Assembly (NCBI GenBank): GCA_965223905.1
Contig: CBDCXV010000010.1
Span: forward strand, 1,312,001-1,376,000
Length of the DNA: 64,000 nt
Origin: Candidatus Latescibacterota bacterium
GTDB lineage: Bacteria > Latescibacterota > UBA2968 > UBA8231
Reading direction: 5' to 3'
The translations under genes were made by a program, and so were the position numbers. Shown piece by piece: positions 21,373 to 40,468 of this stretch; the first letter of the stretch is position 1, and each line of letters opens with the position of its first letter. The notes under the pieces were generated by a model. It was not told the DNA's origin, did not search any database, and was given only the letters and a program-made list of their open reading frames with translations.

Positions 21373-21526
21373 TTGCGGCAGTGCCTGTCAGGGGACTTGA
21401 CCGCCGTAAGCAATACCACCGTGTGGGAGTATCTGATTACGACCGTTCAGCCAAATACGTACCATCGTTTCGGATAAGTAACCCTCGGGCGGTTGTTATC
21501 CGAACAATTGGTTCGGGTACAATCAG

Positions 21527-21865
21527 TTAGGCGAAGGCATAAGAAAAAATGGATGGATTTGGTGGAGTATAGATCATGAGAGGGTGTTGGAGAGTTCGGG
21601 CTGGCGCTTTGCAGTGGAGGAGCATTTACGGAGATGGTCGCCTCGTCGCACGTGATTTCCCAACCCCGTCCGGCGCGCTAATACCGCTTGGGCGTTGCGT
21701 TTTACCTGGTCAAGAAATGATGAAATCAATGGGCAGTTGGGGAGATCGGGACCTGCGGATTGGGAGACCGACGAAAGATGGAGGGCTGAGGAGGGGCGCC
21801 GGACGGCCTCTCCACCACCCAAGCCCGAGAGTTTCTCCCATCGTGGTCGATCCGAGCAGGCCCTC
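21527..21865. other. ORF-less cassette body, copy A (candidate structured ncRNA)
   Basis: Bounded by GTTAGGCGA/TCGCCTAAC; homologous to 22918-23255 with 1-bp indels; internal inverted repeats. Confidence 0.75.
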
Positions 21866-21949
21866 GCCTAACACCTGTTCCCCCGGCTTCGGGCCCTGCG
21901 GGCCCTCCGCCAAACCGCTGTGCGGTTCGGGGGCACTGAGACGTTAGCC
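21866..21949 (+). repeat. attC-like site 1
   Basis: GCCTAAC...CGGGGGCACTGAGAC-GTTAGCC. Confidence 0.9.
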
Positions 21950-21953
21950 GCAA

Positions 21954-22721
21954 GTGGCATTACAACTGACCCATTCCGTGACCAACATGCTGAGCGAGAT
22001 CTACCGGACGAGTTTCGAGTGGGCCAAGCTGGGTGGCCATATCATCGAACACCGTTTTGGAGTCACCGTTTACAACTTGGACCACCCTGAGTACAACGAG
22101 AATAACTGCCTTTGGTATTTCGATCCAGGATTGGCGGATGAGTTTACTTTCCAGGTGGTTGTGGCGGAATTCGAAAGCCTGGGTGTGAGCTGCTCTCAAT
22201 GGGTTCCTTCCCCTTCCGCCAATCTGGATTTATGTGACAATTACTTCCGTGTTCATGAGATGGCTGATTCACCAGGAGAAGGCTTATTGCTCGATCTTGA
22301 TAGGGAATACCACGCTGACGCGAGAATCTGCGCGAAACGCAGCAACAAGCAATCCCTTGCGCAGGTCTATTCCTTGAGTGGCCAGAGATCAACTAGCACT
22401 GTCACGAGGAACAAAGCCTTATCTCTTTTGGGGATAGCGAACTACGAATCGTATGTTTGCTACTGGGATGGGGAACTGGCGGGCAGAGCTGGACTGCTGA
22501 GGGTTCCGGGAAAAGTCGCTCGATTGAAGAGCATTTTCGTCGGCGCCACATTTCGCCGTCAGGGAGTTGCTAGCAGCCTGATAAGGGTGATCGCCACCAA
22601 AGCGAGGGAACTGGGGTACCGCTATCTAGCGTCCGAAGTAGACCCTTCCAACGAGGCGTCGTCGGAATGTCATCGAAAGGTAGGGTTCAAAACCGCAGGG
22701 CTTGTTCACGCGTACAAATGA
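21954..22721 (+). CDS. GNAT family N-acetyltransferase (cassette)
   Basis: IFVGATFRRQGVAS, NEAS..RKVGF; start may be ATG 21987. Confidence 0.8.
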   Translation: MALQLTHSVTNMLSEIYRTSFEWAKLGGHIIEHRFGVTVYNLDHPEYNENNCLWYFDPGLADEFTFQVVVAEFESLGVSCSQWVPSPSANLDLCDNYFRVHEMADSPGEGLLLDLDREYHADARICAKRSNKQSLAQVYSLSGQRSTSTVTRNKALSLLGIANYESYVCYWDGELAGRAGLLRVPGKVARLKSIFVGATFRRQGVASSLIRVIATKARELGYRYLASEVDPSNEASSECHRKVGFKTAGLVHAYK

Positions 22722-22839
22722 CTCGGAGATGGACATCACGCCTATTCCTCGGAGTGAAAGATCAAAACCAGTTGTGTACGTTGTGCCGGCTTTTTAAGGC
22801 CAACCGCGGTTTCTTCGCGTCGAAGGCCAAGCCACCAGC

Positions 22840-22923
22840 GGCTAACACGCCGGGCTGCGGCTCCGGCCATCCGGCCTTCGCCCAACCCGCTTCGCGGGTT
22901 CGCAGCCCACGAAAGCGTTAAGC
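22840..22923 (+). repeat. attC-like site 2
   Basis: GGCTAAC..GGGCTGCG/CGCAGCCC..GTTAAGC. Confidence 0.9.
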
Positions 22924-23255
22924 GAAGGCCAAGGAAAATTTGATTGATTTGGTGGAGTATAGGTCATGATAGGCTGTTGCGGAGTTCGGGGTGGTCCCTC
23001 GCGGTGAGGAAGCATTTGCAGAGATGGGCGGCTCGTCGCACGTGATTCCCCACCCCGTCCGGCGCGCTAATACCGCTTGGGCGTTGCGTTTTACCTGGTC
23101 AGGAAAAGACGAGATCAATGGGCAGTTGGAGAGGTCGGGACCTGCGGATTGGGAGACCGACGAAAGATGGAGGGCTGAGCAAGGGCGCCGGACGGCCTCT
23201 CCACCGCCCAAGCCCGAGAGTTTTCTCCCATCGTGGTCGGGCAGAGCAGGCCCTC
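22918..23255. other. ORF-less cassette body, copy B (candidate structured ncRNA)
   Basis: Bounded by GTTAAGCGA/TCGCTTAAC; diverged copy of 21527-21865. Confidence 0.75.
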
Positions 23256-23340
23256 GCTTAACACCTGTGTCCCCGGCTCCGGGCCCTGCGGGCCCCTCGC
23301 GCAACCGCTTCGCGGTTCGGGGGCACGGAAGACGATATAT
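23256..23340 (+). repeat. attC-like site 3 (ends in non-canonical GATATAT)
   Basis: GCTTAAC...CGGGGGCACGGAAGAC-GATATAT. Confidence 0.88.
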
Positions 23341-23432
23341 GACATGGGTTGTCACAGTACCAGTGAAATTCGACAGAGGCAAAGCTGGCACGGTTGAAAT
23401 CATGAGCCTGCAGGCGCTGGAGAAAAACTGAC

Positions 23433-23924
23433 GTGGATCGCGTAGCCGTATTCGCAGATGTACAGAATGTTTACTACACAGTTAAGCAGCAACATAATTG
23501 CCATTTCGACTATGGTTCTTTCCTCAGGGAGGCGACAGCCGGCCGGAAACTGGTGAAGGCAGTAGCCTATGCTATTGACAAAGGCGACAGAAAGCAGGCC
23601 CAATTTCAGAAAATTCTGAAACGGCTCGGTTTTGAGGTAAAGCTCGCGCCTTATATTCAGAGAGCTGACGGCTCAGCCAAAGGGGACTGGGACGTGGGCA
23701 TTACGGTCGATATGTTGGAGTACGCAGATCGCGTGGATGTCGCTGTCCTGGCTTCAGGTGACGGAGACTACGCGCCTGCAATTGACAAGCTAATCAAGGA
23801 ATCCAAGGTATCCGTCGAGGTGTACGGTGTCCCAGGACTAACTGCTAGTCGTCTAATCGAATCGGCGACGCGATTTGTGCCAATTCAAGGAGATCTGTTG
23901 CTGCCTATTCCCACCACGTGGTGA
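23433..23924 (+). CDS. NYN domain (LabA/DUF88) protein (cassette)
   Basis: VFADVQNVY, KGDWDVGITVD, SGDGDY. Confidence 0.9.
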   Translation: MDRVAVFADVQNVYYTVKQQHNCHFDYGSFLREATAGRKLVKAVAYAIDKGDRKQAQFQKILKRLGFEVKLAPYIQRADGSAKGDWDVGITVDMLEYADRVDVAVLASGDGDYAPAIDKLIKESKVSVEVYGVPGLTASRLIESATRFVPIQGDLLLPIPTTW

Positions 23925-24021
23925 CGTGGAAGCGACACTGTTGCAAAGCCATGCACGCTAACGCACTCTCGCGTCGCTACCTCTCTGCGTTGATCAGCCT
24001 TGGAGCAATCATACCCACGTC

Positions 24022-24111
24022 ATATATCACAGCAATTCACGCTGCCGCCATTCGGCGCTTGGCCTTCGGCAAGTCGCTTTCGCGACTTCGTGAATTGTGA
24101 GAACGTTACAT
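24022..24111 (+). repeat. attC-like site 4 (starts with non-canonical ATATATC)
   Basis: ATATATC..CAATTCACG/CGTGAATTG..GTTACAT. Confidence 0.88.
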
Positions 24112-24154
24112 GAAATGCTTGATAGATATCTGCGATAGACGCTGACAACACGAG

Positions 24155-24784
24155 ATGGACGTAAATCTTCTCTCATCGCGACTTGCCTCGGAATTGGGCT
24201 CGAATAGACTCCTCGTAGCCGCACTCGATGGTCCCGGCGGAGCTGGAAAGTCAACCATCGCCAGGAAACTAAGCGAGAGGTGTAATCTCATCTCAATCGT
24301 TCACGGGGATGACTTCTATGCTCCAATGGAGGAGCATGCGAGAATGGCTCTAACGCCTGAAAATGGTTACATGAGGTATTTTGATTGGGCGAGAATACGG
24401 AGTGAGCTTCTTGAACCCTTATCGCGTGGAGATCGAGCTCGCTACAAGCGCTATGATTGGGGGAGCAACCAGCTGGCGGAGTGGGTTGATCAACCGGCTG
24501 AGGGCATCATCCTGATCGATGGGGTCTATTCATTTCGGCCCGAATTGAGGAAATTCTATGGCTACTCCATTTTCGTCGACACTCCGAAAGCCGAATGTCT
24601 GGATAGGCTGGTCAAGCGAGGTGAAAACACAGACGAATGGATTCGGAGATGGAGGGCAGCGGAAGATTACTATCTGACGCATATAGACACTGCCAGTGCT
24701 GTTTCCGTCGTTGTTTCAGGCATAGGAAGCGCTGGAGCATCGGATCCGATATCGCGACCGAGGATATCCGCGCACTTCATGTAA
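24155..24784 (+). CDS. Uridine kinase-like P-loop protein (cassette)
   Basis: DGPGGAGKST, HGDDFY, YDW; stop codon lies inside ATGTAAC. Confidence 0.85.
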   Translation: MDVNLLSSRLASELGSNRLLVAALDGPGGAGKSTIARKLSERCNLISIVHGDDFYAPMEEHARMALTPENGYMRYFDWARIRSELLEPLSRGDRARYKRYDWGSNQLAEWVDQPAEGIILIDGVYSFRPELRKFYGYSIFVDTPKAECLDRLVKRGENTDEWIRRWRAAEDYYLTHIDTASAVSVVVSGIGSAGASDPISRPRISAHFM

Positions 24785-24859
24785 CACCGTGCCCCCGGCT
24801 TCGGGGCAAAGCCCCTTAGCCCAACCGCTACGCGGTTCGGGAGCACTGAAACGTTAGCC
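24779..24859 (+). repeat. attC-like site 5
   Basis: ATGTAAC-ACCGTGCCCCCG...CGGGAGCACTGAAAC-GTTAGCC. Confidence 0.9.
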
Positions 24860-24929
24860 GAAATGTCGGTTTGAGGCTTACATCATTGCCTCGAGTTGTG
24901 ATTCAACAGAATCAGAAGGAGATGGTCCC

Positions 24930-26642
24930 TTGATAGGTGATTTTGATGTCGATCCGATCACAGGGCGCCTCGTTCTGTGGTGCCGGAGCATTTCCGGAGA
25001 AACCTGGTTGAAAATTACGGAGCCCTCAGGTGAGATCATTGGGGAAGTACCGCCTGAATTTCTTCCCCATCATCCGCGTTGGGCTCCAGATGGACTTCGT
25101 CTTACGTTTTCTGGGAACGATGGCCGCATCGGTGTCTATGAGCTATCTCAGAATGACATAAGGGTCGTCTACGAAGATCAATCCATGCAAGCGGGGTTCA
25201 GCCAGTGGTCGCCAAACGGCACAAGCCTCGTGTTTTCTGCCTACGAAAAGCACAGTACCGAGCAATTGAATAAACGGCCACCTGACATTTTTCACCTCAC
25301 ATTGGATAGCGGCAAACTTGATAGATTGACCGCATCGAAGGACAGTGTGGACAGGTTTCCAAATTGGTCCCCATCCGGTGACCTGATTGCATTTCATCGG
25401 CAAAACCTGGAGGAGCTTAACAAGCCTAAGAAAGTGCATCTATTTGATCTTCAACGTCAAAGAATATCCTTGCTCCTGCCCGAGGCAAATGGTAACCGAT
25501 TTGGTCGATTCCCCTGGTCACGTGACGAAAGCTGGTTTGCACTTCACGTGTCCGACGAGAAGGAAGGGACCGTTCACGTTGTAGATCTTACGGGCCGAGA
25601 TTCCGGGTGGATCTATGAAGATGGGCCTGTGAAAGAAGGTGCATTTTCAAACTCGACGAACAGGCTTCTCTGCGTCAGACCCGATGAGCTTGTTTGGGTG
25701 CAGTTTCCCGTAGGCCGCGTAGATTCACGCATCAGATTGGATTCCGGGGTTAGCGTGGCGAAGAACCTGACTTGGTATCAAATCGCCTTCAGAGCCGACA
25801 GCGATACCGTCTTTTTTCTTGGAACAGACCATAAGGTTTACCGCTGGAAAGAATCTGAAGGATGCACTGTCGTAGCTGAGCATACCGAACCCGTACCGAG
25901 TTTTAGGCTTGAGGAATTTACGGTTCCTGCTTCGGATGGTTTAGCTCTTCCAGCACAGCGGTTGGTTCCGCCGTCTCCACGAGAGCTCGCTGTTCTGTAT
26001 GTGCATGGTGGGCCTGGAGGCAGCCTCGATAGAAATGACTCATGGGCTTTAGGGCTGCTTCGCCAGGGATTCGAGATTGTGCGCGTGGCTTATAGGGGCT
26101 CTACCGGCTTCGGCGAGGACCTCGATCGAGCGAACACCGGGGTCGCCGGGGTCGCAGACGTTCAGGATGTATTAGACTGTGGAATCTACTGGCAGCAACA
26201 CTTTAGTACAGGCAGGAGAATCGCTCTGTTCGGTAATAGCTATGGCGGGTTTCTAAGTCTCCTTGCCCTGGCAGATGCATCTTCACCATTCGTAGGTGGG
26301 ATCTCCACGTGCACTTGCACAAGTCTTCGAATCATGCGCCTCCATCATGATAGATTCCTTCCAAGTAGTCCAACGGAACGCGAGAAAGCATTAGTTGAGC
26401 GATCCGTATTGACACATGCTACCCATATAAAGAGGCCAATCCTGCTGGTTCATGGCGCGCTTGATACCGTCGCGACCACAAGCGAAATGCAGCACGTCGA
26501 GAAACTCATTAATGACTCTGGCGGCAACTGTACGCTAATCGTCTTTGGCGACGACACACACAGTTTGGCAAAGCACCGCGAAGAAATATACGAAAAGGCT
26601 ATCCAATTCTATGAAAAGTGTTCAACGCCTGGACAGGATTGA
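24930..26642 (+). CDS. S9 prolyl oligopeptidase-family peptidase with TolB-like beta-propeller (cassette)
   Basis: WSPxG repeats, HGGPG, GNSYGG, HGALD, DDTH. Confidence 0.88.
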   Translation: MIGDFDVDPITGRLVLWCRSISGETWLKITEPSGEIIGEVPPEFLPHHPRWAPDGLRLTFSGNDGRIGVYELSQNDIRVVYEDQSMQAGFSQWSPNGTSLVFSAYEKHSTEQLNKRPPDIFHLTLDSGKLDRLTASKDSVDRFPNWSPSGDLIAFHRQNLEELNKPKKVHLFDLQRQRISLLLPEANGNRFGRFPWSRDESWFALHVSDEKEGTVHVVDLTGRDSGWIYEDGPVKEGAFSNSTNRLLCVRPDELVWVQFPVGRVDSRIRLDSGVSVAKNLTWYQIAFRADSDTVFFLGTDHKVYRWKESEGCTVVAEHTEPVPSFRLEEFTVPASDGLALPAQRLVPPSPRELAVLYVHGGPGGSLDRNDSWALGLLRQGFEIVRVAYRGSTGFGEDLDRANTGVAGVADVQDVLDCGIYWQQHFSTGRRIALFGNSYGGFLSLLALADASSPFVGGISTCTCTSLRIMRLHHDRFLPSSPTEREKALVERSVLTHATHIKRPILLVHGALDTVATTSEMQHVEKLINDSGGNCTLIVFGDDTHSLAKHREEIYEKAIQFYEKCSTPGQD

Positions 26643-26662
26643 GCTTTACAGGTCCACACAGC

Positions 26663-26746
26663 AGCTAACACATGGGTCACGGCTTCGGGCCATACGGCCC
26701 TTCGCCCAACTCACTTCGTGAGTTCGTGACCCATCAAACGTTATAC
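26663..26746 (+). repeat. attC-like site 6
   Basis: AGCTAAC..ATGGGTCACG/CGTGACCCAT..GTTATAC. Confidence 0.9.
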
Positions 26747-26757
26747 GCCCCAACAAG

Positions 26758-27507
26758 ATGCTGGAGGAACAGGTGGCCGGAAGTAGAGATGATCTCAGAG
26801 AGGCGGTAGAGCGCGGCGACCTCTCCACTGTCAAACGGCTGTTACATACGGAGCCAGGTCTTCTCCACGAGTCCATCCCTCCATGCGATGATCGCAAACA
26901 ACGAGGCCAGATTCTCAGATACCGACCGATGACGCTCGCCGCCGTGGAGTGTCAGACAGAAATTCTCTCTTTTCTGATTGCCGAGGGGGGCGATGTGATG
27001 GAGTACAGCAATTTTCCACTCTGTCGAGCATCACTCTACGACCGTTGTATTCCAACTCTGGAGTTACTGGTTCAGCATGGCGCAGAGGTAAATCGAGTCG
27101 GTAATGACTACGGTCCGCCGTTGATATTCGCGTGCGAAGGAATGGCCCTCGATTGCATCGCATGGTTGCTGGACAACGGCGCGGCAATCACAGGGACTGG
27201 TCCGAGTTTATCTGAAACCGTGTCTTGGAATGCCCTCAAACATGCGGGCTTCTTCAACCGGAAGTGTTCGGGCATGCTTGATTTGCTCCTCGAGCATGGC
27301 GCTGACGTCAACAGTTCAGTTGTTGATGAGGTTGGCGGAGATCCTGAGACTACGGTACTGCACAATGTCGTGGAAAGCGGGGATATTGCTGGCGTGGAGC
27401 TCCTGCTTACCCATGGGGCTGACCAAGATGCCAAAAATGGCAAGGGACAGCGCCCGGTCGAGGTGGCTCGGGAACGCAAAGTCAGAGAACTACTAGAGAA
27501 CATCTGA
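26758..27507 (+). CDS. Ankyrin-repeat protein (cassette)
   Basis: LLVQHGAEVN, LLLEHGADVN, LLLTHGAD..KNGKGQRP. Confidence 0.88.
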   Translation: MLEEQVAGSRDDLREAVERGDLSTVKRLLHTEPGLLHESIPPCDDRKQRGQILRYRPMTLAAVECQTEILSFLIAEGGDVMEYSNFPLCRASLYDRCIPTLELLVQHGAEVNRVGNDYGPPLIFACEGMALDCIAWLLDNGAAITGTGPSLSETVSWNALKHAGFFNRKCSGMLDLLLEHGADVNSSVVDEVGGDPETTVLHNVVESGDIAGVELLLTHGADQDAKNGKGQRPVEVARERKVRELLENI

Positions 27508-27516
27508 GGTTGGAGC

Positions 27517-27607
27517 GCATAACCGCACGTTTGGCGATGCGGCGCTTAGCGCGCCTCGGCCTTCGGCAACCCGCTAAGCGGGTTCGCAAACCGGCAACCC
27601 GTTAGCG
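27517..27607 (+). repeat. attC-like site 7
   Basis: GCATAAC...GGCCTTCGGCAACCCGCTAAGCGGGTTCGCAAAC...GTTAGCG. Confidence 0.85.
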
Positions 27608-27662
27608 GCAATGGAGTTCAGGCCTGGCATGTTCCTCTGGCCAGTCATCAGGAGGCACCAAG

Positions 27663-28148
27663 ATGGAGAATATAATCCTTTCGTTGCAGGGTTTCTCTGT
27701 GTTCCTGCAAATCGCTTTCCTAGTCACTTTGATAGCAATCGCACAGACTCTTCGACGCTCAATTGGAATTTGGAGCCCCTCTTGGATTGTTATCTTTTTC
27801 TCTCTGAAATATTTGGGGGAGTATGCTAATCCCTTCCTGATGAAACTGCTGACTGAGGAATGGACGGCGTTAACAGTCCCAAACGCGCCGGTCACCTTAG
27901 GGCAGTTGTTTGTATTTCTCAGTTCCGCTCACCTGATATTCATACTGCTGGGTGCTTTCGGCCTCCTCGCCCTGGTCTTGTCGGACCTATCCCATTCTTT
28001 GTGGGGCGCAGACGACATACACCCCTCACGTTGGTTTCAGTGTTTCGAGTTGGTCGGCCGTCATCGACTCGGATTCGGGTTGGCTACGGTGCTGTTGGCT
28101 GTAGCGCACCCTGCCCTTCTGGTGGGCCTTCTGTTGAGTAACAATTGA
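27663..28148 (+). CDS. Hypothetical membrane protein (cassette)
   Basis: 161 aa with about 4 hydrophobic segments; AGGAGG RBS; fills the cassette. Confidence 0.75.
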   Translation: MENIILSLQGFSVFLQIAFLVTLIAIAQTLRRSIGIWSPSWIVIFFSLKYLGEYANPFLMKLLTEEWTALTVPNAPVTLGQLFVFLSSAHLIFILLGAFGLLALVLSDLSHSLWGADDIHPSRWFQCFELVGRHRLGFGLATVLLAVAHPALLVGLLLSNN

Positions 28149-28165
28149 GACTGGCAGACCACAGC

Positions 28166-28247
28166 CGATAACACCGTGCCCCTGGCTCCGGCGCCTGCGC
28201 GCCTACGCGCAACCGCTTCGCGGTTCGGGGGCACTGAGACGTTAGAA
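28166..28247 (+). repeat. attC-like site 8
   Basis: CGATAAC-ACCGTGCCCC...GGGGCACTGAGAC-GTTAGAA. Confidence 0.9.
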
Positions 28248-28344
28248 GAAATGGAAAAAAGAATCAGCGCTTAAGTAAGAAATCGCCTGAATAAAGGTAG
28301 AGGTACGATATATTCGCCGTTCAGTTTTTAGGCAGGAGTTTTTA

Positions 28345-29304
28345 ATGAATAGCAAGGCTAGTATCGTAGATGAGTTTTTGCTTAAAGGGGTCATCGGTAT
28401 GAGCAGGGCGATCGGTAAGAATCGTATGTCTGGCCATCCAGGCGCTGCGATGCTTGCTGCATATTTCTTTTGTGTTGAGAATGCCCTGTCAGACGAGGTT
28501 CAGGCCGAGGTCTATAATCTCGTGAGACGCATGGTCAACTCAGAATCAATGTGGTTCAGCAGAGATGGAGAATCTTCAACCAATGAGATCTTCTTTTCTA
28601 CCAAACCAGATCAGAGACCAAACGCGGATCTAATCCCGTCTGTTGCCACTGCACTAGAACCCAGTATCACCGAATGTCGGGATTCAGGACACAATACTAT
28701 CTTCGCGTCGTTAGTACTGAAGGCACTGCACACCGCGCCACATTATGCATTTCCTGCGATTATTGAAGGTATCATAAACTTGCTCAAAGCTTTTGAGGGA
28801 CGTGGGCCGGGATGGGCACGTGTACCAGGTAATGAGAAATTAGCAGATCCCCGTGAGTTTTCGGTACCTCAAGAACTGGATGATCCTTCCTATGAGAGCC
28901 ATATCGACATGATCGAAGCAGTATCCCGCTATGTCGTACCAGATAACTTCGCCAAAAAAGGCGTTGGTGGGCCGATCCATGTCATAGATCATGCCGTAGC
29001 TCTGTTAGATCTGCACGCGTTGGGGTATTCTTCGTTGGCGAATAGAGGACTGGCAGCTCATCAGCAACATATGAAGTTGTGGCTGGGCCTCCCTAAATTT
29101 CCGCAAGCTGAAAACAGCTACTCCGTGAAATCGAAGCACGATCCTCGCGCATTGGACTACTGGCGTGAGAAGATAACCATAAAAGATGGTGGCGGTGATG
29201 AACACCGACTGAAGATTCTCTATGGCGCGCACCGTTTTGCCGAGTGCATTACAGACGTAAACAAACGTCGAAGTTTTCTTGAAAGTGCGGCGCACCTGTT
29301 TTGA
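28345..29304 (+). CDS. Hypothetical protein with several His motifs (cassette)
   Basis: 319 aa, AGGAG RBS; SGHPGAA, SGHNTIF, IHVIDHA. Confidence 0.75.
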   Translation: MNSKASIVDEFLLKGVIGMSRAIGKNRMSGHPGAAMLAAYFFCVENALSDEVQAEVYNLVRRMVNSESMWFSRDGESSTNEIFFSTKPDQRPNADLIPSVATALEPSITECRDSGHNTIFASLVLKALHTAPHYAFPAIIEGIINLLKAFEGRGPGWARVPGNEKLADPREFSVPQELDDPSYESHIDMIEAVSRYVVPDNFAKKGVGGPIHVIDHAVALLDLHALGYSSLANRGLAAHQQHMKLWLGLPKFPQAENSYSVKSKHDPRALDYWREKITIKDGGGDEHRLKILYGAHRFAECITDVNKRRSFLESAAHLF

Positions 29305-32667: not shown

Positions 32668-32686
32668 GGACGATCTGGTAGACAGC

Positions 32687-32768
32687 ACCTAACACCGTGC
32701 CCCCGGCTTCGGGCCGTTCGGCCCTTCGCCCAACCGCTGCGCGGTTCGGGGGCACTGAGACGTTAAGA
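32687..32768 (+). repeat. attC-like site 11
   Basis: ACCTAAC-ACC-GTGCCCCCG/CGGGGGCAC-TGAGAC-GTTAAGA. Confidence 0.92.
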
Positions 32769-32802
32769 GAAATGTTTTAAGAGACGAGTAGGAGTTTCAG
32801 GT

Positions 32803-33513
32803 TTGAGACCAGTTCTTCTGTTTGACCTTGGCGACACCCTTGTGCAGTACTATCGCAGGGAAGAGTTTCCTCCTTTGCTGCGGGCAGGAATTCACGCAGC
32901 CAAAGAGGCACTGGAGCGTTCGGGACACGATTTGCCTTCGGATTCTGAGATCGAGCGCGGTGTCGCGACTGAGAACTACGAAGCCAAAAACAGTCGCGTT
33001 CGCCCACTCCACAAGAGGCTTGGTCGTATCTTTGCGGTCGCACCTTGCGTTTCGGAGGAAGAGTGGCTGCCGATCTGTCGTGCCTTCCTCACGCCAATCA
33101 TTTCTATTGCCAAGATCTATGAAGACACTCTTCCGGCTCTAGATGCGCATCTGGCGGATGGCTGCCGCGTAGGAATCCTGTCGAACTGTCCTTGGGGTTC
33201 ACCGAGCGAGCCCTGGTTTGAAGAACTGCGGCGACATGGCCTTTCGACGCGATGCGAGGTGGCTATCTTTTGTTCGGATGTAGGGTGGCGGAAGCCCGCC
33301 CAACCTATGTTTCGCCGGGCATTGGATCATTTTGGATGCAAACCAGAGGAATGCCTGTTTGTCGGAGATAATGCAAGGTGGGACATTATGGGTGCGAGAC
33401 GAGCGAATATGATTTCCGTGCTCATCGACCGAATCGGTCACGTGGATGTGAGTTCGGGACTTGTTATCCGATCTTTGCTTGATCTAAAGCCCGTCCTCGA
33501 ACGATTGGATTGA
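32803..33513 (+). CDS. HAD family hydrolase (cassette)
   Basis: FDLGDTL, LSN, RKP, FVGD..WDIMGA. Confidence 0.88.
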   Translation: MRPVLLFDLGDTLVQYYRREEFPPLLRAGIHAAKEALERSGHDLPSDSEIERGVATENYEAKNSRVRPLHKRLGRIFAVAPCVSEEEWLPICRAFLTPIISIAKIYEDTLPALDAHLADGCRVGILSNCPWGSPSEPWFEELRRHGLSTRCEVAIFCSDVGWRKPAQPMFRRALDHFGCKPEECLFVGDNARWDIMGARRANMISVLIDRIGHVDVSSGLVIRSLLDLKPVLERLD

Positions 33514-33545
33514 ACGCACTTCAACGATTGGATTGAACGCACTTC
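33500..33545 (+). repeat. Perfect 23-bp tandem duplication
   Basis: AACGATTGGATTGAACGCACTTC x2. Confidence 0.95.
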
Positions 33546-33628
33546 TCTTAACACGACCGGGCCCGGCTACGGGCCATACGGCCCTTCGCCCGACCGCTTC
33601 GCGGTTCGAGCACGGCGAAAGGTTATAT
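33546..33628 (+). repeat. attC-like site 12
   Basis: TCTTAAC...GGGCCATACGGCCC..ACCGCTTCGCGGT...GTTATAT. Confidence 0.88.
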
Positions 33629-33653
33629 GACATGAGTAACAGGTGAGCGTGAG

Positions 33654-34730
33654 ATGAGATCGTCGATTCTTCCAATCTTACTCGTGTTTGCTCATATCAC
33701 GGCCAGCGAAGGAGGTGAGCCAATGTTTAGCGTAACCGTTGATCCGCGGATAGAGCTGCTGTCCGTTGTGGGAGTATTGGCCGACCACCAGGGCATGACG
33801 AACTACGACATCCAGTATAGGCAAGAAATCCTAAATCGCTTTTCCAATCACAGGAATCACAACGCCGTCACGTTTCTACGCCGTGTCATGGATAGGGCAC
33901 TTGCATCCGATGCATACGCGACCGTTATGATCCATTTGTCGCAGCCTCCCGCATTAAAGTTTGAGAGTCCGATCAACGACGACGCGATGGAGGACTATGT
34001 CACCCGAGCGTTTGGTGGCGACATTAATATCATTGCATTTGTCGAGACGCTCCGTGACTTCGTCAAGGATTCAGATTTCATCGAGTTTTACAGCTCCCAA
34101 TCACGTTTCTATCAATCTTTGAGATCAGATGCTTTGGACAAGCTTGGTAGCACAGATTATATGAATACGCTTGAACAATACGTTGGCGATAAGCAGGAAA
34201 ACTATCACATCATTCTCGGGCCCCTGCTCCATCACGGCGGTTTTGGACCCCGGATCGTAGGCGACAAGGGCGTGACTGATCTCTTCAGTATCATCGGCCC
34301 GGTGGGCGAGGATGAGGGGGTTCCCGACTTTGGAGACCGAGCTAGACTTCAAGACGTTCTTTGGCACGAGTTTGCACATTCATTTGTCGATCCCATAACC
34401 GCCGATCACCTGATGAGCGTTAATGAATATTCGTCCCTGTATATACCTATTGCAGAACAAATGGCGAGCGCTGGCGGCTACATGAACTGGCAAACCTGCG
34501 TCAACGAACACATAATCAGAGCCATTACATGTCGATTGTTCCACTCTGAGATGGGGACGGAGGCTGGAGAGCAGGCCCTTGCGGCCGAGAGGGAGCGAGG
34601 CTTTCGTTACATCGACGCCATCCATTCAAGGTTGTTGGAGTATGAGGGTAATAGGTCGACGTATAGCACGCTCAGGAGTTTCTATCCTGAGATCGTCGCT
34701 GCGTTTGCACAGATTGCAAGCGAGAATTGA
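33654..34730 (+). CDS. DUF4932-like protein with HExxH motif (cassette)
   Basis: VDPRIELLSVV, HEFAHSFV, NEHIIRA. Confidence 0.8.
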   Translation: MRSSILPILLVFAHITASEGGEPMFSVTVDPRIELLSVVGVLADHQGMTNYDIQYRQEILNRFSNHRNHNAVTFLRRVMDRALASDAYATVMIHLSQPPALKFESPINDDAMEDYVTRAFGGDINIIAFVETLRDFVKDSDFIEFYSSQSRFYQSLRSDALDKLGSTDYMNTLEQYVGDKQENYHIILGPLLHHGGFGPRIVGDKGVTDLFSIIGPVGEDEGVPDFGDRARLQDVLWHEFAHSFVDPITADHLMSVNEYSSLYIPIAEQMASAGGYMNWQTCVNEHIIRAITCRLFHSEMGTEAGEQALAAERERGFRYIDAIHSRLLEYEGNRSTYSTLRSFYPEIVAAFAQIASEN

Positions 34731-34760
34731 AAACGGAAGTTCCGCAAGAGGACCCACGTC

Positions 34761-34845
34761 ATATAACACGTCCGTGCCCGGCTTCGGCGCTGAGGCGCCT
34801 TCCCGCAACCGCATTCGCGGTTCGGGCACGGCGAAAACGATATCT
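34761..34845 (+). repeat. attC-like site 13 (ends in non-canonical GATATCT)
   Basis: ATATAAC..CCGTGCCCG/CGGGCACGG..GATATCT. Confidence 0.88.
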
Positions 34846-35168
34846 GAAATAGGAAAAGAAAAACAGAGCCTATTCAGTATATCTCCAGCCATTGGGAGAA
34901 TACTGCGTTTTCGCAGTACAATCACTAGTTATAGAGCCAGGAGAAGAAACCAGCGATTGTGACCAATGAAGCTGACAGGCGGCAGGACGAATAGCACCGG
35001 GAGCGGAGGAGATGCTCGCCTTGAGGTCGGATCAACTGGCAGGATCGGAAAAGCCAAACATTGGAATCAACAAGAACTGCTGATGAGCCGGCGGCAGTAA
35101 CTTCCGCATTCGCGTCACACCACAAGAGGGTCGCCTTTGCGCCTTCAGAATCGAAAAGGAGCCCACCC

Positions 35169-35876
35169 ATGGAACGGATTTTCTCAAATCTCTACCGCAT
35201 CGGAGGCGAGCCCCACGAGCGCGGGCAGTCGCATTCCTACCTCCTCGTGAGAAAGACGGGCAATCTGTTCATCTGCCACCAGAGCGTCCCGACGTCGGCG
35301 GACGTGAAGGAGATCAAGCAGCTCGGCGGGGTTGCGAGTCAATTTGTCTGCCACCATTGGGACGCGAACCGGAAGGGCGGACACGACGGGCTCTTCAAGA
35401 CGTTCGGCTGCGCGCTTCACCTTCACAGGGCGGATCGCGCCGCCGCGCGAGGCAAGACGAAGTTCACGCTCGACACGTTCGACGACGCGGGGCTGACGCT
35501 GGACAAGGATTTCGAGGCCATCTACATGCCGACGTGCACGCGCGGCCATACGGTCTTCCGGTGGCGCAACCGTGGGAAGTACCACCTGTTCTCAAGTCAC
35601 GCTATCTACCTTCTCGAGGACGGATGGCGTCTCAGCTTGAACCGCCACGAAGGCAAGCTTTGGGGGCCAGGTTGTAGGATTTGGCAGGCGCAAGCCATAC
35701 GACCGGCGCTCGCCAAGTTGAAGGGCCTCCAGGTGGATCACATATTTCCGGGTTACACGCAGGTGGGTGACGACACCTTCTACCGGTTAGACGACCGCAA
35801 GAGGCGGGCGCTGACCCGCGCCCTGAAGGCGGAGCTCATGACCGCCGATCATCTGTTGGATTCTCGGCAGCTATGA
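35169..35876 (+). CDS. Metallo-beta-lactamase-fold-like protein (cassette)
   Basis: HSYLLVRKTGNL, CHHWD, LHRAD, TRGH, IFPG. Confidence 0.65.
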   Translation: MERIFSNLYRIGGEPHERGQSHSYLLVRKTGNLFICHQSVPTSADVKEIKQLGGVASQFVCHHWDANRKGGHDGLFKTFGCALHLHRADRAAARGKTKFTLDTFDDAGLTLDKDFEAIYMPTCTRGHTVFRWRNRGKYHLFSSHAIYLLEDGWRLSLNRHEGKLWGPGCRIWQAQAIRPALAKLKGLQVDHIFPGYTQVGDDTFYRLDDRKRRALTRALKAELMTADHLLDSRQL

Positions 35877-35945
35877 GGCAGGCTTAGAGAAAGAGAACCT
35901 CACAGACAACAGATTACCAGACGACCTCTCGTTGAAGCTTAGGAA

Positions 35946-36035
35946 GTATATCACAGAAATTCCCACTGCGCGCCATTCGGCGCTTGGCCTTCGGCAACCT
36001 ACTCCGTGGGTTCGCAAACCGGCATTACGTTACCT
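35946..36035 (+). repeat. attC-like site 14 (starts GTATATC; arms poorly paired)
   Basis: Left part resembles site 4; right arm CGCAAACCGG resembles sites 7 and 9; ends GTTACCT. Confidence 0.8.
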
Positions 36036-36064
36036 GCCATGGCAGTGCCCATAAGGAGAGACAC

Positions 36065-37198
36065 ATGAAGTCCCTGACATCCATCATCGCCGCCTCAATC
36101 CTCCTCCTCTCGCCCATCCTCGCCCACCACGAACGAGCAGAACCCCCGGAGGGAGCCGTGGCCCGAACCGTCCTGCCAGACGTCAAGATGCCGATCATGA
36201 ACGAGCACTCCCGTTCCACCCTCGTCTGCGCGATGTACGCACTGCTGCCGGCTCTCGGGCAACAGGGCTGGTCGATCCCTCGACTGGAAGCGCTGACGGG
36301 ATACGCCTTCTACTTCCAGATGCGGGAGGGGGGCGAGTCGGTCTTCGACGACGATCTCGATTGGGGCCTGGCCATGCACGTCCTCGACATCTTTGGTCAG
36401 GCGAAAGTCTATGATGCGGACAAGAACTCGGACGTTGATCTCCCTGCGCTCAAGGCCGAAGCGCGAGACGCAGTCGTCGCCAGCCTGGAGAACGGACTCC
36501 CCAGCCTCGTTTGGGCGCCACGAAGCCTGGAGCAGAGGGGCAAGGTCCATTTCGCTTGCTGGGGCCTCATCGTCGGCTACAACGCGGCAGACGGAACCTA
36601 CATGATCCGCCAACCGGCCGAGAAGCTCGACTACCCGGTCCGCTTTGACGCCATCGGGTTCGCCGATCCGAGCGATTGGTTCCGCGTCGACACCTTCAAG
36701 CCGAAAGAACTTGACGACAACGCTCTGCACCTCACCTCACTCCGCAATGCCGTCGCCTTCGCGAACGGCACTCGCTACGACAACCCCCAGGTCGTCGAGG
36801 CCGCCCTCGTGCATCCCCCGAAAAACCCCTATGGATTCGCCGCCTACGAGCTCTGGCAGGAAGCGTTCGAATCTGACGTAAATCTGAACGCCACGTTCTT
36901 CCACACAGAAACCCTGAAACCGCGTAGAGAGGCCGCGGCCGCCTACCTGCGGGAGCTCACCTATGCCTATCCGGCCGCCGCCAATCCGCTGGAAGCAGCA
37001 GCTGTTCACTATGATCGAGAGGTCGAATCCATCACCGCAATCTCCGACCTGTGCGTTGCCGCCACCAAGCACGAGCCCAAGGCCTTCACCCCCGACGAGC
37101 GCGCCGAAATCCGCCCCCTCATCGCCCAAGCGTTGAAGGCCGACCGGGCCGCCGTGGCGCAGATCGAAGCCGCGCTCAAGATTCTGGAGACGCCGTGA
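36065..37198 (+). CDS. Hypothetical secreted protein (cassette)
   Basis: AAGGAG RBS, signal peptide, WGLIVGY motif. Confidence 0.75.
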   Translation: MKSLTSIIAASILLLSPILAHHERAEPPEGAVARTVLPDVKMPIMNEHSRSTLVCAMYALLPALGQQGWSIPRLEALTGYAFYFQMREGGESVFDDDLDWGLAMHVLDIFGQAKVYDADKNSDVDLPALKAEARDAVVASLENGLPSLVWAPRSLEQRGKVHFACWGLIVGYNAADGTYMIRQPAEKLDYPVRFDAIGFADPSDWFRVDTFKPKELDDNALHLTSLRNAVAFANGTRYDNPQVVEAALVHPPKNPYGFAAYELWQEAFESDVNLNATFFHTETLKPRREAAAAYLRELTYAYPAAANPLEAAAVHYDREVESITAISDLCVAATKHEPKAFTPDERAEIRPLIAQALKADRAAVAQIEAALKILETP

Positions 37199-37283
37199 GG
37201 CAGGCTCAGCGTGCTCTTGACCGGGGCCCATCGTGAGGGGGGGAGTACGCTGTTTCTTTGCCGATTCTCAAACTGCCACAGGC

Positions 37284-37367
37284 AGGTAACACGTCCGTGC
37301 CCGGCTTCGGGCTTACGCCCTTCGCGCAACCGCTTTCGCGGTTCGGGGGACGGCGAAGACGTTAAGT
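37284..37367 (+). repeat. attC-like site 15
   Basis: AGGTAAC-ACGTCCGTGCCCG...ACGGCGAAGAC-GTTAAGT. Confidence 0.9.
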
Positions 37368-37408
37368 GGCATGCGCACGATAAGTCCGACCTGGTTTAGA
37401 GGTCATGG

Positions 37409-37978
37409 ATGAATCGGCACTTTGTCGTCTCGATAAACTCGGTCTCGGGAGGAGGGAAAACCGCTTTGGCGACCGCCTTGCATCGCTCACTGCCCCAATC
37501 AGCTCTGTTTTGCTTCGACGATTTCGATGACTCCAACGTTTATCCAGAGGACTTCTATGAGTGGAGCCGCCGAGGGGCCGATATAACGGAATTTGACTGT
37601 CCTGGGATGAGAAACGCGGTCGACCAAGAAATTCAAAGGGGTACGGCGAAACAGATAATCCTTGATTTCCCGTTTGGACGCCGCCACCCTCGATTCGCTG
37701 ACATCATCGATCTCGACGTGTTCATCGATACTCCCCTTGACGTAGCTATGGCACGTCGAATCTTGAGAGACCATTCCGGCGATAGCCAGAAATCCGCAGA
37801 AGAAGCATTGAAGGATCTACTGGATGGATTGACCCACTATCTGGAAAAGGCTCGACACCCGTTTTTGGATGCCCACAAAGCCAAGGACGTGAGTGATCTC
37901 ATTCTGGACGGATGGCGCAGTCTTGACGATCTGAAGACCGAGGTTCTGGTTCGGATAGATTCGGGCCAGAAATCGTAG
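37409..37978 (+). CDS. Uridine kinase-like P-loop protein (cassette whose own att site is lost)
   Basis: SVSGGGKT, FDDF, FIDTPLDVAMARRILRD. Confidence 0.8.
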   Translation: MNRHFVVSINSVSGGGKTALATALHRSLPQSALFCFDDFDDSNVYPEDFYEWSRRGADITEFDCPGMRNAVDQEIQRGTAKQIILDFPFGRRHPRFADIIDLDVFIDTPLDVAMARRILRDHSGDSQKSAEEALKDLLDGLTHYLEKARHPFLDAHKAKDVSDLILDGWRSLDDLKTEVLVRIDSGQKS

Positions 37979-38048
37979 ATCGATTCTGTGCGCGTCAGCA
38001 CCTTCGGGCGCGAACTGCACGTGGCGCCCTGAGTTCGAGAAAACACGC

Positions 38049-38858
38049 ATGAGCGACACGAAGACAACGGGGCTGAACGGGGATCAGGTTCGACGGTTCC
38101 TGGACGATGGCTTTTTCATCGTTCGGGAGCTGCTGCCCCGCGCGGCGATTCAGCCGCTCATCGATGAACTGAAGCAAAAAGCCGACGAGGCGGTGCACGC
38201 GGCAGTCGAACAAGGGGTGCTGGATCCGGCACACACGTTCAAACTGCGAACCTGGCCATCGCTCCTGGATGTTGTCGAATCCATAATCGGTCTCGAGATA
38301 CTGGCCCACCCGCAGTTCAATATCCGCACGAAGCTTCCGGATCAGGCAGAGACCGTCCTTCCCTGGCATCAGGACCTGGCCTTTGTGGACTCGGAAGAAG
38401 CAGGGGATACCTTGCTGGTTAACTGCTGGATTCCTCTTGTCGATGCCCGGGCCGGGAACGGCTGCATGCAGATGATGCGCGGCACGCACGGACTGCCGCT
38501 GTTGCCCCACGACCTGCGGGTTCCTCTGCCCGGCGGCAAACACTGCGTGGGCATTGACGATCGGGACCTCCCCGACTGCGAGGTCGTGACGGGCGAGCTG
38601 AATGCGGGGGATGTTCTGTTGACGACCGAACGTGTCCTGCATCGATCGCTGCCGAACGTATCCGAAACCGTCCGCTGGAGCGTCGACACCCGATACACCG
38701 CTCTGGGACTGCCGACCGGTCGTGCTGACGTTCCTGGCTTTGTCGCCCGCAGCAGCAATCATCCAGACCGCGTCGCGCGATCGGCCCAAGATTGGAACGA
38801 GAGGGTAGAAGCCGGTTTGTGGCAGGAGCGGAGAGATTTGCTTGCGACAGGTAATTAA
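38049..38858 (+). CDS. Phytanoyl-CoA dioxygenase (PhyH) family protein
   Basis: WHQD, WIPL..NGCM, HRSLPN..RWS. Confidence 0.8.
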   Translation: MSDTKTTGLNGDQVRRFLDDGFFIVRELLPRAAIQPLIDELKQKADEAVHAAVEQGVLDPAHTFKLRTWPSLLDVVESIIGLEILAHPQFNIRTKLPDQAETVLPWHQDLAFVDSEEAGDTLLVNCWIPLVDARAGNGCMQMMRGTHGLPLLPHDLRVPLPGGKHCVGIDDRDLPDCEVVTGELNAGDVLLTTERVLHRSLPNVSETVRWSVDTRYTALGLPTGRADVPGFVARSSNHPDRVARSAQDWNERVEAGLWQERRDLLATGN

Positions 38859-38882
38859 TCCGCCACCCGATCCAACCATCCC

Positions 38883-39604
38883 ATGCGCATGTACACCTAC
38901 CTGCTGAAACTCCAACTGCTCAACGCACTGGCCTACCGCTTCGAGTATCTGTCTTCCATCGGGCGGAATCTGTTCTTCCTCCTCGGCTCTGCCTTCCTCT
39001 GGCGCACCGCGTATCGCGGGATCGACCAAGTCGCCGGAGTCACCGAGGCGCAGATGGTCACCTACGCCGTCGTCGCGCGGGGAGCTGGCTGGTGCCATGC
39101 TGCACGAGCCGGAAATCATGTTTCTCGACGAGCCCACGATGGGCATGGACATCGAGGTGAAAGCGGCGATCCGGACCTTCATCCGGGAAATCAACCGGCG
39201 CCGGCGCACCACCGTGCTGCACCACGCACGACCTGGACGACGTGGAGGAGCTCTGCGAGAGACTCATCGTCATCAACCAGGGACGCATCATCGAAGACGG
39301 GCCTCTGGCCGCGCTCATCGACTCGATCACCCCGCACCGCTATCTGATCGTCGAGTGCGATCCCGGAGCAGGCGAGCCGCTGGCTGGCTTCGCCCACGCC
39401 CACGCGGAGATCCTGGAACGGCGAGACAGAATCGTCCGCATCCGCTTTGCGAGGAGCCACGTGTCTGCGTCGGCGCTGATCTCGGAGCTGTCGGCCCGCT
39501 ACCCGGTGCGCGACGTGTCCGTCCAGGAGCCCGACATCGAGGACGTGATTCGCACGGTCTACGGGCGCGAGGTGGGGGTCGAGAGGCCAGGCGGTTCCAG
39601 CTGA
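38883..39604 (+). pseudogene. Fused remnants of an ABC-2 permease N-terminus and an ABC ATPase C-terminus
   Basis: ALAYRFEY..MVTY joined to LHEPEIMFLDEPT..HDLDDVEELCER..QEPDIEDVIR; frameshifts. Confidence 0.75.
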
Positions 39605-39724
39605 TCGATTCAGTCTGCCCGCTTTTATTGGTATTTTTCTACAAACACATGCCGCCGGACGCGAGCTGTCGTTCCGTTCTTCCCGAGTCTATCCGAGCTA
39701 TCCTGGAAATAGTCGGAAAGAGGT

Positions 39725-39809
39725 GGGTTCGCACTGCGGCGCTGATCGCGCCTGAGCCTGCGGCAACCCCTTGCCAAGCTCGGGGTTCGCAAACCGAAGA
39801 ACGTTTTGG
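39725..39809 (+). repeat. Degenerate attC-like site (left core lost)
   Basis: CTGCGGCGC..GCGCC..GGCAACCCCTTGCCAAGCTCGGGGTTCGCAAACC..GTTTTGG, similar to site 10. Confidence 0.78.
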
Positions 39810-39848
39810 AAATGCCGCATCGGAGTTGACACTGGCTGTGAGCAGCAC

Positions 39849-40391
39849 GTGATAGTTCGAATATCAGCGAAGCTCGGGAAGAAGATCGACCTGATCCCGG
39901 ACAGGATTCTTCCCTCCGGTCCCAATCCTTTCGCCGACTGGTCGGCGCACTTGTTTACGGCCGGCCGAATTCAGTATGTCCTGATTTCCAACACGGCATC
40001 CCTCTACTCCATGGTGATGTTTGGCAGAGGTGTGACCGATGATGGCCGCTTTTTGGATCGGATGACGAGCTGCATGGGTGAATTCCTTCGAGCAGATGAC
40101 CACGGATTCATTTGGGAGCGGTTAATCATACCATGGGTCGATCACGTGAGCTTTTCCAAGGCACTAAACCGATCCGTGACTGGTTCAATGAACGAGCTTG
40201 TCTTCCAAGCTCAACATCATCTAATCGGAGGTGCCATGTTGCCGTTGGATGTTTCGTTTCGCTTGAATGAAGTACCCCTATCGTGTTTGGAATACATCAC
40301 CCCAAGAGCCTCCTTTCAGCACCTTGTTGTCCAAGGTGGAGAAATATCACAGCTTCCCAAACCCAGCAATCCCGGGGGGCACATTCTATAA
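39849..40391 (+). CDS. Hypothetical protein, DUF6933-like (cassette)
   Basis: DWSAHLF..SNTASLYS..NRSVTGSMNE; stop codon lies inside CTATAAC. Confidence 0.65.
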   Translation: MIVRISAKLGKKIDLIPDRILPSGPNPFADWSAHLFTAGRIQYVLISNTASLYSMVMFGRGVTDDGRFLDRMTSCMGEFLRADDHGFIWERLIIPWVDHVSFSKALNRSVTGSMNELVFQAQHHLIGGAMLPLDVSFRLNEVPLSCLEYITPRASFQHLVVQGGEISQLPKPSNPGGHIL

Positions 40392-40468
40392 CACCGTGCC
40401 GCCAGCTTCGGGGCTAAAGCCCCTTTCGCCCAACCTCTGCGCGGTTCGAGGGCACTTTAATGTTAGGG
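40386..40468 (+). repeat. attC-like site 16
   Basis: CTATAAC-ACCGTGCC...GGCACTTTAAT-GTTAGGG. Confidence 0.85.

Follow-up and report, generated by a model that had tools for sequence, protein, structure and literature searches.

In classical integrons a tyrosine recombinase (IntI) is encoded divergently from a recombination site, attI, and from an array of co-oriented, mostly single-gene cassettes which carry an attC site at their 3' end. The attC sites consist of inverse core sites (RYYYAAC ... GTTRRRY) around an imperfect internal palindrome, the crossover takes place between the G and the TT of the R' box, and the last 6 nt of the preceding R' thereby become part of each cassette. In addition, the integrase possesses an IntI-specific domain near patch III (I2 domain), which is held to be the innovation that enabled the recombination of folded attC sites. 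Arrays of at least two attC sites with no integron integrase nearby are called clusters of attC sites that lack an integron integrase (CALINs); they are common, and half of them lie in genomes without IntI (Cury et al. 2016, PMC4889954). The present analysis concerns such an array in the genome of Candidatus Latescibacterota bacterium (GCA_965223905.1). It is located at 21437–40468 of a stretch of 64,000 nucleotides, the window, which comprises positions 1,312,001–1,376,000 of contig CBDCXV010000010.1 (C10:1312001-1376000). We describe it as a chromosomal integron array with an attI-like site and 17 cassettes, most likely built by an IntI-like recombinase of about 293 amino acids (aa) without the I2 domain.

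Recombinases without intI_Cterm have already been noticed near attC sites: 50 of them were found by Cury et al. (2016, PMC4889954), who placed four between IntI and Xer, each with fewer than three attC sites. Moreover, an 'integron-like' subgroup of the simple tyrosine recombinases has been described in which the insertion is 'not fully conserved' (Smyshlyaev et al. 2021, PMC8138268). The enzymes treated here share with this subgroup the relationship to IntI, and with the recombinases of Cury et al. the missing intI_Cterm and the vicinity of attC sites. In contrast to the four, up to 18 sites lie beside the gene within 20 kb (L114; L-labels denote fetched loci, stretches of 20 kb), together with a conserved attI. 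Searches of full texts, supplements aside, brought up no account of attC arrays served by a domain-less integrase; members of the clade may be contained in Supplementary Figures S1 and S5 of PMC4889954. The window array itself is of an ordinary, known kind, a CALIN which retains an attI-like site, and the unusual part is the recombinase system.

Repeat finding and direct reading revealed 16 complete sites of 81–96 nt between 21866 and 40468, all of them on the + strand, and thereby confirmed the palindromic sites listed in the initial annotation of this DNA. The R'' box ends in AAC in 14 of the 16 sites and the R' box starts with GTT in 14, both canonical boxes being present in 12. Elsewhere R'' has ATC instead (sites 4 and 14) and R' has GAT (sites 3 and 13). 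Therewith cassettes 4 and 14 (23334-24111 and 34839-36035) show, in contrast to classical integrons, a GAT...ATC core in place of GTT...AAC, while their attC bodies are alike; the complementarity of R' and R'' is full in cassette 4 and partial in cassette 14 (2 of 4 variable bases). The inverse core sites RYYYAAC ... GTTRRRY and the imperfect internal palindrome of classical integrons are both present. A covariance model (R1) was built from the 16 complete sites, and sites which it recognises are called model-type in the following. The 16 sites score 53–84 bits, the best other match in the window only 25 bits (17334-17440). A degenerate 17th site (39714-39809), in which no R'' box was found, scores 19.7 bits. 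No Rfam family matched in the window at gathering thresholds.

The ends of the sites follow a chain rule. If the four variable nucleotides of R' are reverse-complemented and compared with R'' of the next site, on average 3.47 of 4 agree and 9 of 15 pairs are perfect, whereas the mean is 1.81 of 4 for the site's own R'' and 1.77 for all other sites (perfect in 2%). The four pairs singled out in the initial annotation (GTTAGCC 21943 with GGCTAAC 22840, GTTACAT 24105 with ATGTAAC 24779, GTTAGGT 31652 with ACCTAAC 32687 and GTTACCT 36029 with AGGTAAC 37284) are present. This complementarity between neighbours, the ..TAAC/GTTA.. boxes and the G|TT crossover are shared with classical integrons.

On the proposed structure 86.9% of the cells are paired. 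Column shuffles give 71.6%, and none of 500 reached the observed value; pairing drops to 32–49% when the partners are slid. Compensatory, two-sided changes occur in seven of the eight pairs of the L stem. In the fold of a single site, the R box is followed by an asymmetric internal loop and an L stem, and the tip branches into two or three small hairpins; the folding z-scores of single sites are only −2.1 to −5.2, and in 14 of the 16 the bottom strand forms the more stable fold. Classical attC sites likewise have a spacer that stays unpaired, an L stem that covaries and a terminal structure that varies. Different are the branching of the tip and the position of the unmatched bases. The L'-R' spacer exceeds the R''-L'' spacer by 2–4 nt in 13 of the 16 sites, the difference being 3 nt in nine of these, and the L stems are unbroken for 7–10 bp in seven. 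Thus the extra bases lie in the L'-R' spacer, on the arm opposite to that of the canonical extrahelical bases, whose place by definition is the R''-L'' arm of the folded bottom strand (PMC2727003). The attC sites are recognised by shape and not by sequence. Given the anatomy of R box, unpaired spacer, L stem and branched tip, recombination would therefore proceed on folded single strands, as with canonical attC sites.

The array starts with an attI-like site which the initial annotation, correct in describing a real array, had overlooked. In the following, G000 stands for the genome holding the window, G001–G040 for its relatives and G002 for a genome of the same genus; together they form a comparison set of 41 genomes. 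Positions 21437-21532 of the window align with the stretch from the recombinase start codon to the first cassette on another contig of the same genome (G000-C1) and in five relatives (G002, G004, G012, G016 and G020). Hence attI is conserved between gene and array in all six recombinase-adjacent loci aligned, and it adjoins a recombinase gene on C1 and in the five relatives, whereas no integrase gene stands beside it at the head of the window array. All seven sequences diverge straight after CAG|TTA. The first attC has GCCTAAC as R'', to which the variable part of the terminal GTTAGGC is reverse-complementary. To the left follow two small open reading frames (ORFs) without Pfam match and a TonB-dependent receptor gene. 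Sigma-70 promoters and terminators were sought in 21200-22000, and a scan for these two found none; other promoter types were outside its range.

Where cassettes can be compared, their boundaries fall on the expected nucleotide. Cassettes 1 and 3 are 88% identical paralogues (21526-21943 and 22917-23334), and the stretch of similarity has the G of an R' box at either end. Cassette 4 with its NYN gene (23335-24105) has a copy of about 99% identity on C1, where it stands first in the array beside the recombinase; the flanks are unrelated. The identity begins right after the G of the preceding site, an attC in the window and attI on C1, the boundaries being G|ATATAT and ACG|TTA. It follows that the downstream attC body travels with the gene and that R' contains the crossover, as it does in classical integrons, where the cassette likewise carries the last 6 nt of the preceding R'; the high identity shows a recent copy move between the two arrays. 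The chain rule, the paralogy from G to G and the NYN copy bounded at the G support the proposal of the initial annotation that circular cassettes were inserted by crossover after the G.

Cassette turnover between species, another feature of classical integrons, was observed at the same locus. In G002 the left flank is shared up to window position 21529 and the right end at 37359-37997 and 39384-40518, the array ending at the equivalent of 40518; between the shared flanks lie about 6.2 kb in G002 and 19 kb in the window genome. Cassettes of the window recur in other arrays. Cassettes 3 and 4 (89%) as well as 15 (97%; C1:4486153-4487496) sit in the recombinase-side array of G002, and cassette 11 is 98% identical to a third locus there (C1:2571-3696, − strand). 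Cassettes 5 and 15 occur in the G001 array beside a recombinase remnant, cassette 5 being 91% identical to C3:4117260-4118009. A gene order fixed among relatives, lack of shuffling and a spread like that of repetitive extragenic palindromic (REP) elements had been named at the outset as signs against cassettes. None of them was encountered, since sister species differ in cassette content at the same locus and share cassettes in other arrays. Further attC-type clusters or single sites of G000 lie away from clade recombinases, at C10:1667054-1667925 (−), C11:2026266-2028496 (−), C10:1618834-1618931 and C10:373829-373919.

Among named EF-Tu proteins, those of Latescibacterota and of Gemmatimonadaceae/Gemmatimonadetes metagenome-assembled genomes are closest to that of G000, with 86–87% identity. 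The G000 assembly (7.92 Mb in 11 contigs, GC 64%) contains 19 PF00589 matches, none of which lies in the window, and the earlier statement that 64 kb hold no integrase is thus borne out. With its 16 complete sites, the window array is therefore a CALIN by the usual definition; it differs from this class by the conserved attI-like site at its head. The best match to the integron integrase model TIGR02249 in the genome (C1:1175160-1175970) is found within an ORF of 296 aa on the − strand of C1 (C1:1175132-1176021), 0.9 kb from four + strand attC sites of the same type (C1:1176935, 1177969, about 1179145 and 1180031). Its two pieces score 128 and 88 bits on TIGR02249, and a tblastn search of this assembly, 93.6% complete, found no other copy of the clade recombinase. 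The initial annotation had supposed that the recombinase acts in trans or was lost. This fits, as the sole gene of the cognate type is located on C1 beside attC sites of the same type and is frameshifted; however, the enzyme is not a canonical IntI.

Intact homologues (P-labels below) have 293–309 aa, are 71–94% identical and score 228–240 bits on TIGR02249, less than the cut-off of 265 bits, whereas the canonical IntI of the relatives attain 284–469 bits. They score 207–223 bits on NF040815 (XerA), where P0014 and P0029 attain the cut-off of 220 bits, and 171–186 bits on the XerC and XerD models. The TIGR02249 match of the G000 copy skips model positions 182–253. The intact P0002 aligns to VchIntIA (2a3v), its best solved relative, in two blocks with 19 residues between them compared with 61 there. 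Both GKGxKxR and HxLRH were found in 31 clade members, all with 59 aa from one motif to the other, and in two canonical IntI, which have 100 aa there. These three results together imply that the IntI-specific domain of about 41 residues, which marks the classical integrase, is absent. In VchIntIA this domain contacts the extrahelical bases, and by analogy the spacer asymmetry on the other arm may go with the missing domain. An AlphaFold model of P0002, of moderate quality (mean predicted local distance difference test 67.6) and used for the ranking of neighbours only, has 2a3v as first and XerA as next Foldseek neighbour. In a protein atlas only generic 'tyrosine recombinase' clusters appeared. 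A quick tree of 36 rows, with branch support by the SH-like approximate likelihood ratio test only and no XerC, XerD or XerA references, places canonical IntI and the domain-less sequences together and a Xer-like outgroup apart from both; the frameshifted P0001, P0004, P0005, P0010, P0015 and P0025 and most of P0030–P0120 were left out. The tree does not order canonical IntI and the two domain-less groups among themselves and is silent on whether the domain was lost or never gained.

At each of the ten clade-recombinase loci examined, model-type attC sites lie next to the gene, on the strand expected. Their number is 4 at G000-C1, 14 in G001, 5 in G002, 18 in G004, 12 in G012, 4 in G016, 6 in G020, 1 in G010, 10 in G023 and 5 in G040. 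In the group with 76–94% identity (G000-C1, G001, G002, G004, G012, G016, G020) the gene is divergent from the array, as in classical integrons, and in the group with about 50% identity (G010, G023, G040) it is co-directional with the array downstream. A search of the 41 genomes at 46% identity or more found clade members in 13 and none in 28. At least ten model-type sites occur in 13 genomes, 12 of which carry a member; these site counts come from filtered scans and are lower bounds. The exceptions are G037, with 10 sites and no member found, and G013, with a member and no sites in an assembly that is 84% complete. G004 (76 sites), G020 (82) and G012 (43) possess no canonical IntI above the cut-off, and the five genomes with canonical IntI alone have no model-type site at all. 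Within about 10 kb of canonical IntI no model-type sites were detected at any of six loci examined. The canonical locus of G021 (C7:34001-54000; 350 bits on TIGR02249) has its own, longer attC-like repeats near locus positions 4638-4770 and 6552-6680, which the model does not match. From this co-occurrence and the site-free canonical loci it follows that two systems coexist in the family and that the window array belongs to the domain-less one. Genomic association thus pairs attI and attC arrays with a domain-less IntI-like recombinase.

According to the mechanism suggested by these data, each cassette has its own 3' attC and is joined to the next by crossover between the G and the TT of R'. 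The builder would be an IntI-like tyrosine recombinase without I2, whose sole copy in G000 is located on C1, divergent beside the same attI and cassettes of the same type, and is inactivated. The domain-less recombinase would itself catalyse the cassette reaction on a single-stranded attC substrate, and the window array of this strain would now be frozen unless another enzyme substitutes.

Among the other explanations, palindromes of the REP or terminator type, spread between fixed genes and not serving recombination, can practically be dismissed. In their favour, the sites are GC-rich hairpins behind co-oriented genes, and the z-scores of single sites are modest. However, REP elements and bacterial interspersed mosaic elements are dispersed among unrelated core genes and their units are not mobile, whereas here the sites cluster beside one recombinase clade and the cassettes move: the chain rule holds, the paralogues and the 99% copy have their borders precisely at the G of GTT, and one locus holds different cassettes in sister species. 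Among the other genes of the window, moreover, the model finds no convincing match, the best being that of 25 bits at 17334-17440. It is also very improbable that double-stranded sites of the Xer/dif type are moved by a housekeeping Xer, as with pdif modules or integrative mobile elements exploiting Xer. The clade enzyme resembles XerA and XerC/XerD in its size, its two-domain fold and its catalytic motifs, it matches their models, and XerA is among its structural neighbours. A dif site is short and fixed, whereas the sites described here are 81–96 nt long and conserved in pairing instead of sequence. Furthermore, a housekeeping Xer would be expected as one conserved, intact copy per genome irrespective of arrays, but the clade gene was found in 13 of 41 genomes, is disrupted in five of eight close copies and lies by arrays at ten of ten loci. 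IntI is both its best family and its best solved-structure match.

More serious, yet still unlikely, is an ordinary CALIN into which a canonical IntI, since lost, unassembled or resident in another lineage, inserted the cassettes while the domain-less enzyme was uninvolved. The commonness of CALINs in IntI-less genomes (PMC4889954), the incomplete assembly, the canonical IntI in two genomes with these arrays and the extra domain reported as essential (PMC9668308, PMC8138268) would agree with it. Against this, the canonical loci lack model-type sites nearby (0 of 6; repeats of another type in G021), the canonical-only genomes lack them altogether (5 of 5), three site-rich genomes lack a canonical IntI, and all ten domain-less loci examined adjoin an array, with a conserved attI in the six aligned. 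A domain-less builder is thus preferred, though several points weigh against it. In the literature IntI is defined by the extra domain, and attC recombination is considered to require it (PMC9668308, PMC9024848, PMC8138268, PMC7790495), and Cury et al. (2016, PMC4889954) judged such domain-less recombinases not to be IntI. The G000 copy is frameshifted near codon 226, its catalytic C-terminus continuing in another frame, and the first H of the HxxR motif of intact homologues is D in it. Of eight close copies three are intact (G002, G016, G020) and five disrupted (G000, G001, G004, G012, G013), at different places; the lesions are frameshifts, an internal deletion and, at codon 55, an in-frame TAA. 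They could reflect recurrent decay or, in part, errors of long-read assembly; integrase genes of classical integrons are often decayed too. Seven of the 41 genomes, the array-bearing G010 and G023 among them, contain a canonical IntI above the cut-off, and the assembly, being 93.6% complete, leaves room for an unassembled integrase. The 41 genomes are kin, and counts across them are not independent samples. Logan contigs covering 21000-40900 break at attC sites, with joints such as 24045>34818, 31657>22882 and 32669>33582; these joints lie inside attC repeats, with sides of 21–60 nt, cannot be assigned to this organism and speak neither for nor against circles.

A scan of a genome collection for relatives of the recombinase gave 80 loci at 38–56% identity. 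Model R1 matches nine of them, and a generic attC detector finds at least three sites in 14, a rough lower bound given by a crude detector; in its calibration it called 8 sites in the window, 7 of them among the 16 of the model, compared with 0.8 per shuffled window. Among pairs of consecutive sites, perfect 4/4 chain matches amount to 9 of 11 in Desulfitobacterium (L012), 3 of 4 in a Bacillota metagenome-assembled genome (L009) and in Halanaerobacter (L013), 3 of 3 in a Latescibacterota record (L026), 3 of 5 in Spirochaetia (L030) and 2 of 2 each in two Saccharibacillus loci (L016, L022). In Saccharibacillus sacchari DSM 19268 (L022 11342-20627) the gene of the domain-less IntI-like recombinase is followed by at least eight sites, which are 98 nt long and form three small hairpins apiece, and their ends obey the chain rule on direct reading. 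In Desulfitobacterium sp. Sab5 (L012 12422-20731) a chain-rule array lies downstream of a domain-less IntI-like recombinase. Many of the 80 loci show no array, e.g. multi-copy ones of Roseovarius and short contigs of Rhodobacteraceae, and may represent other mobile elements.

Judged from sequence, the domain-less integrase lineage looks like a new variant of the integron system. With somewhat greater reserve than for the builder of the window array, we lean towards a separate, phylum-spanning integron lineage whose integrase never had or has lost I2, with branched attC sites and unmatched bases on the opposite arm, and which coexists with canonical integrons in the family without sharing their sites. 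Both the detection of integrons and accounts of their origin rest on the IntI-specific domain. The domain-less clade stands beside conserved attI and arrays in at least eight genera of one family, and chain-rule arrays lie beside related recombinases in records of Saccharibacillus, Desulfitobacterium, Halanaerobacter, Spirochaetia and Latescibacterota. The apparent cognate recombinase would fail a domain-based test for IntI, and recombinase-adjacent arrays would therefore also be filed as CALINs. If the enzymes are active, surveys undercount complete integrons and overcount CALINs, and the step from double-stranded to folded single-stranded substrates would be testable with a natural domain-less enzyme. 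Complete integrons have been reported to be nearly absent from Bacillota, and this apparent rarity in Gram-positive bacteria would then need re-examination. If the lineage is indeed separate, many filed CALINs, including those of Bacillota, would be complete integrons of a second type, and single-strand attC recombination would be independent of the I2 helix.

Table 1 The attI-like site, the cassettes and the inserted element of the array (positions in the 64,000-nt window)
Feature	Start	End	Strand	Content and attC site
attI-like site	21437	21532	+	crossover point between G21526 and T21527 of GTTAGGC
Cassette 1	21527	21943	+	ORF 21576-21947 (123 aa), no Pfam match; attC 21866-21949
Cassette 2	21944	22917	+	GNAT acetyltransferase 21954-22721 (PF00583, 6e-15); attC 22840-22923, 68.6 bits
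Cassette 3	22918	23334	+	paralogue of cassette 1; attC 23256-23340, R' GATATAT
Cassette 4	23335	24105	+	NYN-domain gene 23433-23924 (PF01936, 1e-37); attC 24022-24111, non-canonical ATC/GAT core
Cassette 5	24106	24853	+	P-loop kinase (AAA_18) 24155-24784; attC 24779-24859
Cassette 6	24854	26740	+	S9 peptidase 24930-26642 (PF00326, 3.5e-25); attC 26663-26746
Cassette 7	26741	27601	+	ankyrin-repeat protein 26758-27507; attC 27517-27607
Cassette 8	27602	28241	+	ORF 27663-28148 (161 aa), no Pfam match; attC 28166-28247
Cassette 9	28242	29451	+	ORF 28345-29304 (319 aa), no Pfam match; attC 29371-29457
Cassette 10	29452	31652	+	weak APH-family ORFs 29461-29853 and 30965-31546 flanking an IS3-family insertion sequence; attC 31563-31658
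IS3-family insertion sequence in cassette 10	29930	31192	+	transposase 30303-31187; rve, HTH_21 and rve_3 domains; GC 0.67
Cassette 11	31653	32762	+	DUF4037 gene 31657-32667; attC 32687-32768
Cassette 12	32763	33622	+	HAD hydrolase 32803-33513; attC 33546-33628
Cassette 13	33623	34839	+	DUF4932 gene 33654-34730 (PF16286, 1e-55); attC 34761-34845, R' GATATCT
Cassette 14	34840	36029	+	ORF 35061-35876 (271 aa), no Pfam match; attC 35946-36035, ATC core
Cassette 15	36030	37361	+	ORF ending 37198, no Pfam match; attC 37284-37367
Cassette 16 (probably fused cassettes)	37362	39803	+	weak PRK-like kinase ORF 37409-37978, PhyH dioxygenase 38049-38858, more ORFs; degenerate attC 39714-39809
Cassette 17	39804	40468	+	DUF6933 gene (ORF 39771-40391, true start probably later); attC 40386-40468; array end

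The 17 co-oriented cassettes are bounded by the attI-like site, the 16 complete sites and the degenerate one (Table 1). Their GC content, 0.50–0.62 in most 1-kb bins compared with 0.64 genome-wide, agrees with the mostly lower values reported at the outset. Most of the earlier gene list was recovered by Pfam (GNAT, NYN, AAA_18 kinase, S9, ankyrin, DUF4037, HAD and DUF4932), the PRK-like and APH matches being weak, while PhyH and DUF6933 were added. A gene described as MBL-like could not be reproduced, as Pfam gave no match for 35061-35876, 28345-29304 or 27663-28148. Five cassettes are without Pfam match; in cassette 15 the GC content by codon position (0.67/0.44/0.78) favours the + frame. The APH matches in cassette 10 lie under the PF01636 cut-off of 23.2 bits (16.3 bits, E 0.0083, profile 38–119; 20.6 bits, E 0.00043, profile 189–226). 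They cover different parts of the profile and therefore fit one APH-like gene split by the insertion sequence, of which G001 holds at least ten copies at about 90% identity and G002 several.

Upstream of the array, an ORF with NUDIX and DUF433 domains (16924-17715) contains the weak attC-like match at 17334-17440 (25 bits). At its DUF433 end the ORF shares 91% identity with G001 C3:5716401-5716666, which lies beside an attC, and it possibly represents two fused stray cassettes. Direct repeats of about 0.9 kb (8474-9381 and 40762-41758; 91–93% identity), which carry gene segments of the dihydrodipicolinate synthase (DHDPS) family, flank a 31-kb stretch which includes the array, and both map to one G002 locus near 7046500-7047700. 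Elsewhere in the window, an MmeI-like type IIL restriction-modification gene (13832-16702, − strand) comprises MmeI_N, helicase spacer, methyltransferase, target recognition (TRD) and C-terminal domains. An ISL3-family transposase gene (45802-47100) is followed by a HEPN (RiboL-PSP) gene with 45% GC (47117-47980), and there are many copies of this element in G002. A second multi-copy element with a UPF0236-type transposase (54145-55590) is likewise present in many copies in G002.

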